64,000 bases of DNA from an uncultured Coxiella sp. (GTDB taxonomy: Bacteria > Pseudomonadota > Gammaproteobacteria > Comchoanobacterales > Comchoanobacteraceae). The stretch covers positions 435 to 64,434 of the forward strand of contig CACBGS010000005.1 in assembly GCA_902538855.1 (NCBI GenBank), in the 5' to 3' direction. Below, piece by piece: positions 21,001 to 27,000 of the stretch (positions within the stretch are counted from its first letter, which is position 1; the number at the start of each line of letters is the position of its first letter). Made by a program: the position numbers.

Positions 21001-24000
21001 CAAAATCTGTAGAAAACTGTTTCAAATCCTTAACACAGCCCATATGCTCTTTAGCTAACCAACACTGTAAGAATGGACTCAGCAAATCTAATGTACCGAT
21101 ATCGCTCTTCTTACTCTGTGTTTTAAGCTGACTTAAAAAAACATTGTGCAACATCGCCTCAGGCAGCACGCTAGATTGTTGATACAACTGCAACTCATGA
21201 GCATCAAAACGCTCTATATGCTTAGTCAATAAAGCAGCATCAACTTGTGGATGATTAATCAAGGCATGTAAATATTTCTTTGCTAGTCGGTAAAATCGTA
21301 CAAACTTATTCCTCAGATCATACCTATCAGCATATTGCATAATCTGCACTACCAATTCTAAAGCATGTAGCTTATCCGAACAATCATGTTTGAGTAAGTG
21401 CTGCAACTTTACAAATCTACGCTCTAGGCCTAAACATATGCGGATTAATTCATTACCTGAAAACTCGAAGCGCTTTGTAGTATTATTCATAAAATTGATT
21501 ATTAACCTGTATAATGAATAATAACAAAAAAAAATATAAAAATAAACTTTAAATAGCAGCGCACATCACAGAGAAAATCTTTGTCTATGCTTAACCAGTA
21601 AAAGATCTATTTGTCGATAAAAGAAAGATCTATGACGCGTATTATATAACACATCATCAGCGATAGAACGACGATTTATTGCAGATGCTTGCTGTTGTAT
21701 AATTTGCTCTATCAGTAAGGACGGCATACCTCGTAGCTTAGCTCGCTCAACTTGCAAAAACATTGGCAGATCAATAGCAACAACCGCATCATAATTTTGG
21801 GAAGAATCAGTCTCATAAACTAAAGGAATAATAACAATAGCATACTGATCAAGATGCGCATCTCTAAATTCAGTTACTTTTTTACGCACCAAAGGATGTA
21901 CCTGCGCCTCAACAAAAGCACGATCTTTTGCAACTGAAAAAATTCTTTCACGTAAAAATTTTGTATCTATACCATGGGCTTGATGTAAAACTTCAGCACC
22001 AAAATGACCAGCAAATACTTGCTGTAACTCTTTATCATTATTATACAACTCTCGTACTATAACGTCAGCGTCAATTATAGGAAAACTATAATTAGACTTA
22101 ATATACTGCATAAAAGTAGATTTACCACATGCAAGGCCACCAGTGACTGCTACACAAACCATTCAACCGTCCAGAAGTTATACGTACTGACTAGGATAAT
22201 AATAGCCGCCAAATATACTCCATAAAAAAGCCAGCTTCAGCTGATTTAGATGATGAGTTTTGCCCCAATAACTGCAAGTACTGTGATTTATTCAAATGCT
22301 GTAGCCTATCTCTTGTAGCAGAAAAAATTGCGCCATGTGCACCAAGACCACATACCCTATTATATTTAGAAATATCTACTCCCGCATGATATGTAAGCCA
22401 CTTTGATAAAGGCCGCACAGACTCAGAAACAACATGATCCCGACGCAAACTATTATTATAATTATCACCAAGTGAAATACGCGTATTACCCTTATATGAG
22501 AAATCATTAATCCACTGCATATACTTATTAGATACAGTACGACAATATATTTCACTTGAATCAACAAGAGCGTACCTAAAACTCAACTCTCTACCATAGG
22601 CGCCTTTTATAGAACCCATAGTAAACACTGTTCTTGCAGGCAAATTATCATAATTTTGTTTGATATGATACAGATATGTATTGGACTCCCTTCCTAAATT
22701 AGACAAGCTACGCACAGTAAATAATGATGGCTGTTGTGCAATAGCATCACCAATACCTCTCGTACAGTACTTATGACTCTTACAATATATATGCACATGA
22801 TTTACATAAGGTAGATACTTTTGCAGCCATGACAAATCCTCTTCATAAGCAGCAACCACCAAATCAGGCTTATCTTGATTCACCAACAACAGCAGACCCG
22901 AGTATATCCACGAACTTAAAGTTACCTGCTTATTCTCAGCAGCTTTATTATGTTCAAAAAGCACATTATCAGTATTAGAAAAAATCAAGCTAAAATAAAT
23001 TATTACATGCAATAATTTAGAAAAAACCGTTGCATAAAAATAATAAATCCTATCCAGAAAGGCTATTAAGACAAAACCTAAAAAAAAAGGAAAAGATTTC
23101 TCAAGAAAATATTCTAAAGAATGATAAGTTTTAATTACTTTCTGAAACAAAACCACAACTCCCAATACCTATCTACATGTTAAATAAAGCTCAGAGTAAT
23201 TTCAATATATTTTATAGCACAGCCTTGCTTTTTCTCTAGCACAGGCAATCGAACCAGCTAGGCAAAAATCAGACAATATATATGAGTATCTTAGAACTTA
23301 TAAGCCTATCAACTGCAGCAAAACAACCCTGTAATGCATTACTATATTTTATAAGAAAGCTTAGTGCTGCTCTAATATAAACGACCAAACAACTTCCATA
23401 TAATAGCCTGCTTCCAGAGAATCACCTACTGTATTTTCAGCTAGTAAACTCGCGTACTGACTTTTTTTAATACGCTGCAATGCACTCTTATCTGCCGAGA
23501 ATATAGCACCATGCATAGCCTCATTACGTTGATAACAACGCTGCTGCAAATCTATTCCAGTGTGATAATCTAACCATTTACCTAAAGGTCTAATCTTTAC
23601 AGGAACAATAGGCCTACGCACATACACATCATAGCCATCCCCCATAGAAAGAGCATGCTTAATATTAATACGGTAGTTATAGATCTTATCTAAGGCTTTA
23701 TCAGTACAAGGTCTTGATGGGAACACCAACCCACCGGCAATAGCATAGCGCAAGCTTAGCTCACGTACCCAACTGATATTAAGAGACCCCATAGTAAAAA
23801 CCGTTCTCGGCGAAAAACTATCATAGTGATTTATAATATGCGTCAAATAAGTATGCGCCTCTCTACCAACATTAGGCAACATTTGTATACTAAAACGCTG
23901 TGGATTCTTATGTATTTCTGCACTTAAGCCTTTTGCACAACTATCTTTACTTTTACAATATAAATATACATGGCCAATATAGGGAAGATATCTCTTGAGC

Positions 24001-27000
24001 CAAGAAAGATCTTCTTTATAAGCTGCAACAACAAGATCTGGCTTATCAGTTACATTAGCCAAGAGATAAGCAGAATACACCCATGCAGATAATGTAACAT
24101 TTGCATTCTCTTTCGCCCATCTTGCCTGCTTATCTAAATAAGAAATATCACTTATAACACCATAGTATAGTAATAATACTACCAAAGGTTTAATAATATA
24201 ATACCAGAATTTAAGCACACTATTTAGATACACCGGCAGCAAAGAAATTATAACAACCGGTAATACTTTATCTAGATTACTCATGATACGTTTAACAGTA
24301 ATCATAATAAATCTCGAAGTAAAAATAAAAAACAATAGGTGATTTGAACAACGCCATCAAACTTTACTCGTATATAATTGCCCAAGTAAAAAGCGCCAAC
24401 TTACCTCTAGATAATAGCCTGCTTCCAAAGAATCACCTTGTGAATTTTCTTCTAAAAGCTTTAAATATTGATTTTTTGTTAAACCATGTAGCATGGCCCT
24501 ATCAGCTGAGAAAATAGCACCATGTTTACCCCAACCACATCTACTCCTGAGAGTAAGCAAATCAATATCAGCTACATTTTTCAACCAATTACCCAAAGGC
24601 CTTATCCTAGCAGGTATTATATCGCGTTGCTCATAGACATTGTAGCCATCCCCTAAGGAAACAGGATGTTTACCAGGCACAACTTCATAGGTAGCTAAAT
24701 CACTAATTTCAGATGCTTTAAACTTATGACAATAACGCATATCACCAACATCAGCCAGCGAATAACGCAAGCTCAACTCCCTGAGCCAGCTAATATTTAA
24801 AGACCCCATAGTGAAAATAGTACGATTAGGCAAATGATCATAATGATTTATAATATGCGTCAAATAAGTATGTGATTCTCTACCAATATTAGGCAAATTA
24901 TAAACACTAAAACGTTGCGGATTATCTCTAATTAACGCATGAATACCACTTGCACAGGATTGATGGCTTTTACAATATACATACACATGTCCAACATAAG
25001 GCAGATATTTAAGCAACCACCCCAAGTCTTCTTTGTATGCAGCAATAACTAGATCAGGCTTATCTGTAACAGCTGATAACATATGACCTGAAGACAACCA
25101 AGAAGATACTCTAAAATGCGAATTCTCCTTAACCCATTGTACATGATTCATTAAATAAGACACATCCCCAATCAAACCAAAATACAATAACACATAAACA
25201 ATAGGCGTTATGATACAAGACCAAACTTTAATTATTCCATCTAAATAGAAAGGAAGCACCAAGGCAATAGTGACACTTATAATATTATCTAAAAAGCTTA
25301 AACACTTTTGTACATAGTAGTTCGTCGAAGAAGAGTCCGGCACTAACTGACCAAATAAAAATATTATGCTACACGATGATATCTGCTTTAGCAAGCAAGG
25401 ACAAATCACCCATGAATAAACACTATCGCTGTAAGAACCATGCAGTCAGGCGTTCAAAGTCCTCTGGCGTTAGCTGTTCAGGACGTAAACTAGAGTCTAT
25501 TGCTATTACCTGCCAATCAGAAGCTTGAATGTCTTTTTGAAAAATTTTCCGCAACATTTTACGTCGCTGGCCAAAAGCACGTGCAACAACGGATAAAAAT
25601 TCTTTTTCAAAAACTTCATCTACAGTATCAGTTTTCTTAGGGACCATGCGCACAACAGCCGAATGTACTGCTGGAGGTGGATCAAAAGCAGTAGCTGGGA
25701 CTTCTAATATAATATCAGAACTAAAAAAACGCGAGAGCGCAACGGCCAATCTACCATATTGCTTACTACCCACTGAAGCAACTATACGCAGCGCAACTTC
25801 ATATTGCAACATAAAAACGCCATCCACCATATCATCTTTCATTGTTATAAGAGACAATAAAAATGGCGTACTGATATTATAAGGAAGATTACCGATCCAA
25901 CGCATTGGAAATTGTTTAAACTGTTGATAATCTACTTTCAGTACATCCTCCGCAATGATTTTAAAACGCGATGTACCGGCAAACTCCTCTGATAAATATT
26001 TAACTAAATCATCATCAAGTTCAATAGCTGTGACCGCTGCATGTGCTAGAAGTAATCTTGTAAGTATGCCTGCCCCTGGGCCTATTTCAACAAAATGATC
26101 AGTCGGCCTCGGATCTACTAATGCAATAATTCTATCGATAATATAGCGGTCGATGAGAAAGTGTTGACCAAACTTTTTTTTCTTAGGTAGGGAATATTCG
26201 CTCATTAGCTAAGCGATTTTATCTCAACATACTGCTGTTGAGCTAATGATTGCATCCACTTTTTTTGATTTTGATTGATATTCTCCATAAACAACTCTTT
26301 GCGAATAGATTCATCATCTAGATGCACACCGGGCTTATCGCGCTTACCAACCAATTTCAACATATGCCAACCATTACCTGCTTTAAAAGGAATTGACACT
26401 TGCTTACGCTTCATCTTAAGAAGATGCTCTTTAAATAAGTCAGGCAATTCATCTAAAGTAGACCACTGAAATACGTGCAACTCCAGCTCTTTAGGCAGCA
26501 TTTTAGCTGTAATCTTTTGTTTAGACCATTTATTTTGCCAATCCTGCACATACTGCATTTTCTCCTGAGGTAATACATCTTCATTATAATCAAAGACAAT
26601 ATCTTTAACATAATACTGTCTAGCTTCACGTATTTTTTGTGCTTTGCGAGCATCCACTGTGGCTTGATCAAGTGCAGTACGCTCTCTCATAGTCATTTGC
26701 ATAACCTTTTGTGCAAGAAACTGATCCTGAATAAAGGCCAAATAACTGCTTCCTGAAAATCCTTTTGATCTCAATATCTTAACGGGCTTCTTCTGTGATT
26801 GGATAAGTTCTTGCTTCTCCTCATCTGATAAGCTAACACCCATTTGCTTGGCAACATTCACCTGCATATGTATTTGTACAATTGTATCCATCAGCTGCTT
26901 ACGCAATAACTGCTCATTAGCGGCAGCATTACTATCTAAGGCTGCTATAGAACGTACAACATCATTAAACTCAGCTGTGGTGAGAACATAGTCGCCTATA

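Follow-up and report, generated by a model that had tools for sequence, protein, structure and literature searches.

Tandem membrane-anchored DUF3431 genes at the rsmA-coaE junction of a marine Coxiella-like bacterium: an old subfamily of candidate envelope glycosyltransferases

The window analysed here, the whole 64,000-nucleotide (64-kb) stretch of contig CACBGS010000005.1 from an uncultured Coxiella sp. (assembly GCA_902538855.1, positions 435 to 64,434), carries three co-directional genes of the DUF3431 family (PF11913), lying side by side between the housekeeping genes coaE and rsmA. The explanation that best accounts for them as a whole, and which we hold with moderate confidence, is that they belong to an old, vertically inherited and tandem-duplicated subfamily of membrane-anchored DUF3431 proteins, which are most likely glycosyltransferases without an Asp-x-Asp (DxD) motif, acting on the bacterium's own envelope. 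A first-pass annotation had described the same genes as a largely eukaryotic family, amplified in an intracellular bacterium and possibly encoding glycosyltransferase- or sulfotransferase-like enzymes; the genes, their family and their amplification stand as described, but the eukaryotic reading is not supported.

All three genes are on the minus strand. Paralogue 1, on the coaE side (22191-23165), and paralogue 2, in the middle (23361-24335), are maximal open reading frames (ORFs) of 324 residues with a TTG start; paralogue 3, on the rsmA side (24357-25409), is one of 350 residues with a GTG start. The coordinates that had been given for them are exact, and the lengths are those of the maximal ORFs. 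Paralogue 2 has an alternative ATG start at 24305 (giving 314 residues) and paralogue 3 an in-frame GTG at 25343 (giving 328 residues), the latter being a better fit to its 325-residue orthologue P0011. In paralogue 1 a helical, hydrophobic N-terminal region (residues ~1-97, 22875-23165) precedes a catalytic-type domain (residues 98-324, 22194-22874); the domains of paralogues 2 and 3 lie at 23364-24047 and 24360-25064. Between any two of the three proteins, identity is 40-43% in full-length comparison and 45-58% in the C-terminal domain, where paralogues 2 and 3 share 58%. No further DUF3431 copies were found in the window by tblastn.

All three proteins score above the PF11913 gathering score of 25 bits (47.6, 42.6 and 39.0 bits for paralogues 1, 2 and 3), so the accession given earlier is correct. 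The match extends over profile positions 1-203 of 219 in paralogue 1, and its best stretch over positions 1-76 only in paralogues 2 and 3; alignments with 107 family members show that all three keep Y296, E310, E316 and W319, with the C-terminal E..E..W helix present. The four conserved blocks described earlier are invariant in all three copies: DKPDLV.AAY.EDL.WL..YLPY..HV..YCKS; N.GRE..TYL.HI..YD...RT.FTMGS; HGAIFSA; and EAG...E..W. Across the 107 diverse members, residues E109, W113, Y127, K129, N156, G158, Y164, Y172, W256, Y296, E310, E316 and W319 are invariant or more than 90% conserved. NCBIfam and PHROGs searches with the window proteins gave no matches. The window genes are further members of the known DUF3431 family, within which they form a distinct, clade-specific, membrane-anchored subfamily.

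An assembly artefact or collapsed repeat was ruled out: the copies are only ~67% identical at the DNA level, over parts of their length, and independent marine metagenome contigs carry copies 1 and 3 exactly and copy 2 with 1-2 mismatches. Near-identical sequence is present in ~20 seawater or marine metagenome runs. Two gene calls in the protein collection depart from the window copies: P0021 equals copy 2 except for a ~25-residue stretch that reads as a frameshifted segment, and P0001 is copy 1 truncated behind residue 207, where it ends in ...SSEI. Possible reasons are contig ends, errors of sequencing or strain variants with a disrupted copy.

The subfamily has both a lineage and a chromosomal place of its own. 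Its proteins, of ~310-350 residues, share a ~95-residue N-terminal module, a Y-C-K-x4-C insert and an H-G-A-I-F strand, and 20 members form a single clade with 100/100 bootstraps in a neighbour-joining tree of 193 DUF3431 domains. The mean distance from this clade to other bacterial, to viral and to eukaryote-type members is ~2 substitutions per site in each case, and the tree shows no specific affinity of the clade to any of the three; no donor lineage can be named. Among the subfamily members with flanking sequence, most lie at rsmA-coaE: the rsmA-DUF3431-coaE order, complete or on one side only, recurs in L001, L081-L084, L086, L089, L090, L092, L093 and L095, although RsmA in the syntenic relatives is only 39-59%, and SecA 52-80%, identical to that of the window. 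Exceptions are a second, divergent paralogue elsewhere in the L001 metagenome-assembled genome (L002/L094) and several contigs without recognisable flanks. This L001 genome, which is marine and also labelled 'uncultured Coxiella sp.', is the closest species-level genome (RsmA 52%, SecA 73% identical). At the junction there is one copy in L001, L083 and L084, there are two in L081, L082 and L086, and three in the window. Paralogue 3 has its orthologue in P0011/L081a (62% identical over the full length, 71% over the domain) and paralogue 1 in P0002/L081b (45%); the pair of copy 3 and L081a has paralogue 2 as its sister, and the two L086 copies arose by a separate duplication, in a second deep clade.

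A comparison of base composition with the flanking genes, which the first-pass annotation had proposed as a check, places the paralogues among native genes: their G+C content (GC; 0.34-0.36) and GC at third codon positions (GC3; 0.28) match the values of the flanking genes. GC, GC skew and GC3 are flat through the locus, by which recent horizontal transfer or a genomic island was ruled out. Because GC and GC3 match those of the neighbours, the locus is explained by vertical inheritance within the marine clade together with tandem duplications that recurred locally, which is also its simplest history. Judged from synteny and from gammaproteobacterial gene order, the locus is the junction of the conserved lptD-surA-rsmA and coaE-zapD-...-secA blocks, and not an insertion within an operon. 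With this native composition, 100/100 monophyly without eukaryote affinity and a conserved rsmA-coaE place, the transfer from eukaryotes implied earlier is unnecessary. A vertical spread of the kind that had been named as speaking against a eukaryote-like origin is found within the marine Coxiellales-like clade, but not across the gammaproteobacteria at large.

Nor is the family itself largely eukaryotic. A profile search run exhaustively over 1.84 billion cluster representatives (clusters at 50% identity) returned 8202 DUF3431 clusters at E<=1e-3, of which 668 reach E<=1e-30. A pattern scan seeded with motifs, run on one genome for each bacterial or archaeal species, confirmed 205 loci in bacteria from many phyla, including Spirosoma/Cytophagales, Verrucomicrobiota, Abditibacteria, Desulfovibrionaceae, Rickettsiales, Myxococcales, Planctomycetes and an actinomycete; IMG/VR viral contigs hold 162 loci, many of them in giant-virus bins, and JGI metagenomes more than 521. 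The other bacterial members recovered are mostly soluble proteins of ~215-270 residues, and many further members of the family carry a short anchor of 30-45 residues. Eukaryote-type transcripts (GC ~0.50) code for a signal peptide, then the DUF3431 domain and Gly/Ser repeats, with a membrane span at the C-terminus. In the marine metatranscriptome contigs L115, L125, L133 and L155 the signal peptide and DUF3431 are followed by long (G-I/V-S-G)n repeats, by a conserved domain and, at the C-terminal end, by a membrane span, a layout that reads as a type I surface-protein architecture. Giant proteins of 2200-3000 residues with 3-5 DUF3431 domains were also seen (L004, a Rickettsiales metagenome-assembled genome, ORF 5336-13774; P0008, P0009, P0012 and P0017); the two giants that were scanned, P0008 and P0009, additionally hold ankyrin repeats and TcdA/TcdB-like glycosyltransferase domains, and proteins of their type look effector-like in architecture. 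Our literature search found no function assigned to DUF3431, and a search on a link with UDP-galactopyranose mutase (UGM) or giant viruses gave nothing useful; in Aspergillus nidulans, a DUF3431 gene adjoins the putative mixed-linkage glucan synthase gene celA (PMC5519750).

The AlphaFold2 model of paralogue 1, made from a 107-sequence alignment, is confident, with a predicted local distance difference test (pLDDT) score of 94.1 for the whole protein and 94.3 when the domain is modelled by itself. The model begins with a long helix (residues 2-59), and two short ones (66-78 and 83-95) then lead into an alpha/beta domain, which opens beta1-alpha-beta2-alpha-beta3-alpha-beta4. The best PDB matches by Foldseek are enzymes of the glycosyltransferase family 2 (GT2) type with the glycosyltransferase A (GT-A) fold, namely GlfT2, SunS, GtrB, RmlT and the heparosan synthase PmHS2 (probability 0.9-1.0, E 1e-3 to 5e-2, root-mean-square deviation (rmsd) 3.5-5.0 Å over ~100 residues, template-modelling (TM) score ~0.3). 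In BFVD, viral DUF3431-like proteins come top, and next come matches annotated as GT-A type, GT92/LicD, RgpF, GT2, nucleotide-diphospho-sugar transferase and core-2; some of the glycosyltransferase-annotated matches span the whole domain, at TM 0.37-0.55.

In relatives, the DUF3431 domain is fused to Gly_transf_sug and TcdA/TcdB-type glycosyltransferase domains, to Caps_synth, to Glyco_tranf_2_4/GT92, to an FkbM methyltransferase domain and to long ankyrin-repeat arrays; in one fusion, UGM (GLF, 222 bits) is followed by two DUF3431 domains. To judge from these architectures, DUF3431 travels with glycan-building enzymes. Fold and fusions together lead us to think that the window proteins probably are glycosyltransferases, and that half of the enzyme class suggested earlier keeps moderate support. 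The window itself holds a Caps_synth/Gly_transf_sug gene (GT32-like, with a DxD motif; 56240-56986, minus strand) between the icmW region and ruvA, of the same domain family as the DUF3431 fusion partner in P0013 and in the giant ankyrin proteins.

The layout of a hydrophobic N-terminus followed by a globular domain, as first described, agrees with both the AlphaFold model and hydropathy. The hydrophobic block is of ~40 residues and is moderate (Kyte-Doolittle maximum 1.6-2.4; in the three window proteins the 19-residue maximum is 1.7-2.1), with a conserved polar break (D/N) at its middle, and AlphaFold draws the hydrophobic N-terminus as a single 58-residue helix; given this length and this break, one long span or a hairpin are both possible. 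A hairpin would keep the domain in the cytoplasm, where nucleotide-sugars are, and a cytoplasmic domain is the usual arrangement of envelope-precursor glycosyltransferases. The N-terminal flanks carry positive charge, and beyond the hydrophobic block the flank is neutral or acidic; the subfamily keeps the Cys128/Cys134 pair without exception, and cysteine counts are mostly even (P0028 and P0032 lack the second cysteine pair, and their count stays even). As far as such sequence features can indicate, the charge bias and the cysteine pair favour an N-in/C-out orientation, like that of eukaryotic type II enzymes.

We propose that the three genes are old tandem paralogues of a membrane-anchored DUF3431 subfamily, descended vertically in a marine, Dot/Icm-bearing, Coxiellales/Legionellales-like lineage, and that this subfamily, sited at the lptD-surA-rsmA / coaE-zapD-secA junction, has duplicated there more than once. 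In each protein the ~95 N-terminal residues comprise a long hydrophobic helix, with one or two membrane spans, and a pair of linker helices; after them comes a ~230-residue alpha/beta domain, whose first four strands are predicted to fold like the nucleotide-binding half of GT-A glycosyltransferases. The paralogy, the family membership, the synteny at varying copy number, the native composition, the confident fold model and the fusions of relatives are results of the analysis; the enzyme class, catalytic residues, topology, donor and acceptor that we infer would then be as follows. The proteins would be glycosyltransferases without DxD, probably metal-free. The invariant Lys129, Asn156, Gly158, Arg159 and Glu160 would bind a nucleotide-sugar, with the basic K129 and R159 standing in for the metal, and the catalytic residue would be a glutamate of the C-terminal helix, Glu310 or Glu316. 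The diverged copies would differ in the sugar that they add or in the acceptor that they use, on a membrane-proximal glycoconjugate belonging to the bacterium's own envelope.

Several results weigh against this proposal. There is no DxD after beta4, where the window proteins read T-V-F-T-M-G-S and the family F-x-x-G-S, so that only metal-independent GT-A types are compatible. Foldseek found no close solved structure in the PDB, the best E being ~1e-3 at TM ~0.3, and nucleotidyltransferases (of the same superfold) and Rossmann-like methyltransferases appear in the same lists, albeit with worse superposition; sequence and profile searches of the PDB for DUF3431 relatives were empty. Aligned by hhalign with the profile of one glycosyltransferase family, a GT92-like profile built from the fusion partner of P0043, the DUF3431 profile gave a probability of 0.75% (1.2% in the single-sequence version), and a profile-profile link to a known glycosyltransferase family was not demonstrated. 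The Cys128/Cys134 pair and the charged flanks could mean a periplasm-facing domain, in a compartment from which nucleotide-sugars are absent. In other bacteria the neighbourhoods, inspected by eye without a Pfam scan, are lineage-specific and housekeeping-like, with no glycan cluster: Spirosoma neighbours resemble peptidases and dcw-cluster genes, and a Desulfovibrionaceae neighbour is MprF-like. Evidence of transcription is negligible, consisting of one metatranscriptome contig of 173 nucleotides.

Some of the same results would suit a different use of the GT-A/Rossmann-like nucleotide-binding fold, in a nucleotidyltransferase, phosphotransferase, hydrolase or methyltransferase-like enzyme, or in a non-catalytic sensor or scaffold. 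The missing DxD and the negative profile comparison agree with this, as do CMP-Kdo synthetase, GlmU and GMPP-type nucleotidyltransferases and S-adenosylmethionine (SAM) methyltransferases at similar Foldseek E-values, and the only published suggestions, which are a 'sensor' role and a salt-stress phenotype. However, the nucleotidyltransferases superpose at an rmsd of 12-15 Å, against 3.5-4.6 Å for GT2 enzymes; the conserved columns are without a glycine-rich SAM motif; the recurrent fusion partners are glycan-pathway enzymes, UGM among them; and the polar residues that never vary among the 107 members speak for catalysis. We regard such a function as rather unlikely, while giving it a real minority chance. 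The sulfotransferase-like activity suggested earlier we consider highly improbable: Golgi sulfotransferases share the type II layout, and this layout is all that speaks for it, but there is no sulfotransferase in the top 50 Foldseek matches to the PDB or BFVD, no Pfam sulfotransferase match, and no fusion partner tied to the metabolism of 3'-phosphoadenosine 5'-phosphosulfate.

It could also be that these are eukaryote-type, Golgi-like type II glycosyltransferases gained by horizontal transfer and that, whether exported, translocated (for example by Dot/Icm) or facing outward, they work on the glycans or membranes of the host. The IcmW homologue and the many large ORFs without Pfam match in the window are compatible with this, and so are the effector-like giant ankyrin-repeat proteins elsewhere, in which DUF3431 stands with TcdA/TcdB-like glycosyltransferase domains. 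In eukaryote-type transcripts the domain follows a signal peptide, and a type II topology is predicted for fungal members, which makes these domains luminal or extracellular; the invariant cysteine pair and mostly even cysteine counts would suit an oxidising compartment, and the charge pattern of the N-terminal flanks is that of N-in/C-out anchors. Set against these points are the native composition, a fixed syntenic locus in deeply diverged relatives where effector repertoires are typically variable, the monophyly of a subfamily equidistant from bacterial, viral and eukaryote-type members, and the commonness of DUF3431 in free-living bacteria. Furthermore, Dot/Icm signals usually sit in a flexible C-terminal tail, but the C-terminus of the modelled paralogue is the last helix of the domain (pLDDT >90), which leaves no such tail; this helical C-terminus and the core syntenic locus argue against Dot/Icm effector status, and we think transfer with a host-directed role unlikely. 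A broader joint claim is that DUF3431 is an unrecognised DxD-less GT-A-type glycosyltransferase family shared by protists and fungi, where it would work in the secretory pathway, by giant viruses and by bacteria, and that the Cys-paired anchored copies of the window face outward, Golgi-style, with the domain in the periplasm or, after export, in host endomembranes, possibly using host-derived nucleotide-sugars. Taken together, we would put that as distinctly unlikely.

The genes flanking the paralogues on either side were identified by Pfam and TIGR profiles, in agreement with the first-pass annotation: coaE (dephospho-CoA kinase; 21566-22162, minus strand; PF01121 122 bits, TIGR00152 131 bits) lies downstream, and rsmA/ksgA (16S rRNA dimethyltransferase; 25423-26205, minus strand; PF00398 196 bits, TIGR00755 240 bits) upstream. 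Beyond rsmA come a SurA-like gene and lptD; beyond coaE come zapD, a DUF4389 gene, a weakly 2-oxoglutarate (2OG)-oxygenase-like gene and secA. The spacer between paralogues 2 and 1 (23166-23360, minus strand; 195 base pairs (bp)) is the sole sizeable gap in the run from rsmA to coaE, the remaining gaps being 13, 21 and 28 bp. It may be the location of an internal promoter; its sigma-70-like matches are weak only, and a promoter and terminator scan of the locus gave no difference from shuffled sequence and no enrichment of promoter-like sites.

Around this run, the SurA-like gene (26205-27104, minus strand) is short, encoding 299 residues with weak SurA_N and rotamase matches, and abuts rsmA with no pdxA between. 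The order in E. coli is lptD-surA-pdxA-rsmA-apaGH, and this operon is reduced in the window, where a gene of the APH-family kinases (29392-30393) adjoins lptD. On the other side, the 232-residue protein encoded at 19055-19753 (minus strand) has only a weak 2OG-Fe(II) oxygenase match (E 0.0035), and yet L081 and L082 encode counterparts of 81-83% identity, as compared with 80% for SecA, 59% for RsmA and 54% for CoaE; its conservation is unusually strong for an unannotated gene in the coaE-secA block.

The window also encodes an IcmW homologue (55072-55512, minus strand; PF23130, 128.5 bits), a chaperone/adaptor of the Dot/Icm type IVB system, because of which we take the bacterium to be host-associated. 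It fits a Legionellales/Coxiellales-like, host-associated organism, and the intracellular habit assumed earlier is a reasonable inference. Beside icmW are ORFs without Pfam matches (54419-55075, 218 residues; 51923-54400, 825 residues; 49347-51917, 856 residues), which could be Dot/Icm parts or effectors. Many other large ORFs in the window are also without a Pfam match: on the plus strand 8272-11325 (1017 residues), 11560-13311 (583 residues) and 13379-15136 (585 residues), the last two of which, adjacent and both of ~584 residues, may be paralogues; and on the minus strand 34439-38290 (1283 residues). That at 43373-46954 (minus strand; 1193 residues) has a central Pyr_redox_2 match only. Such effector-like orphan ORF content is typical of Legionellales. 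A transfer-messenger RNA gene (41446-41838, minus strand; RF00023, 152 bits) and smpB (33988-34464, plus strand) are ~7 kb apart.

DUF3431 is a very large family without an assigned function, for which a DxD-less, GT-A-like glycosyltransferase activity is a concrete and cheaply testable hypothesis, based on the fold model, the invariant K, N-G-R-E and E residues, and the fusions to UGM, GT32-like, GT92-like and FkbM domains. In marine Coxiellales-like bacteria, an enzyme whose core locus holds between one and three copies is a candidate for generating diversity among surface glycans. That the DUF3431 genes are native to this lineage also corrects the impression that they derive from eukaryotes.

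Considering known systems, the window proteins resemble the CAZy GT2 enzymes of GT-A fold (GlfT2, SunS, GtrB and RmlT) in their N-terminal beta1-to-beta4 half, which superposes over ~100 residues, and in an acidic pair (E-D/N) after the first strand; they differ in having no DxD after beta4, an unmatched C-terminal half and no detectable sequence-profile relationship. Eukaryote-like glycosyltransferase effectors are known from Legionella and Coxiella (Lgt1-3 and SetA), and the window organism, like those bacteria, has a Dot/Icm component together with glycosyltransferase-like proteins. In contrast, Lgt1-3 and SetA are DxD-containing GT-A toxins of the TcdA/TcdB type, to which the window proteins have no Pfam homology, and the window proteins have no evident C-terminal signal region and lie at a core syntenic locus. 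With the multidomain glycosylation proteins of giant viruses and protists (the GT32-like, GT92-like, UGM and FkbM fusions) they share the DUF3431 domain itself, but they are single-domain, membrane-anchored and in a clade of their own. With PF11913 at large they share the invariant K, N-x-G-R-E, Y and E-x5-E-x2-W positions, whereas the ~95-residue N-terminal module, the Y-C-K-x4-C insert, the H-G-A-I-F strand and the fixed place between rsmA and coaE, in one to three tandem copies, are the subfamily's own.

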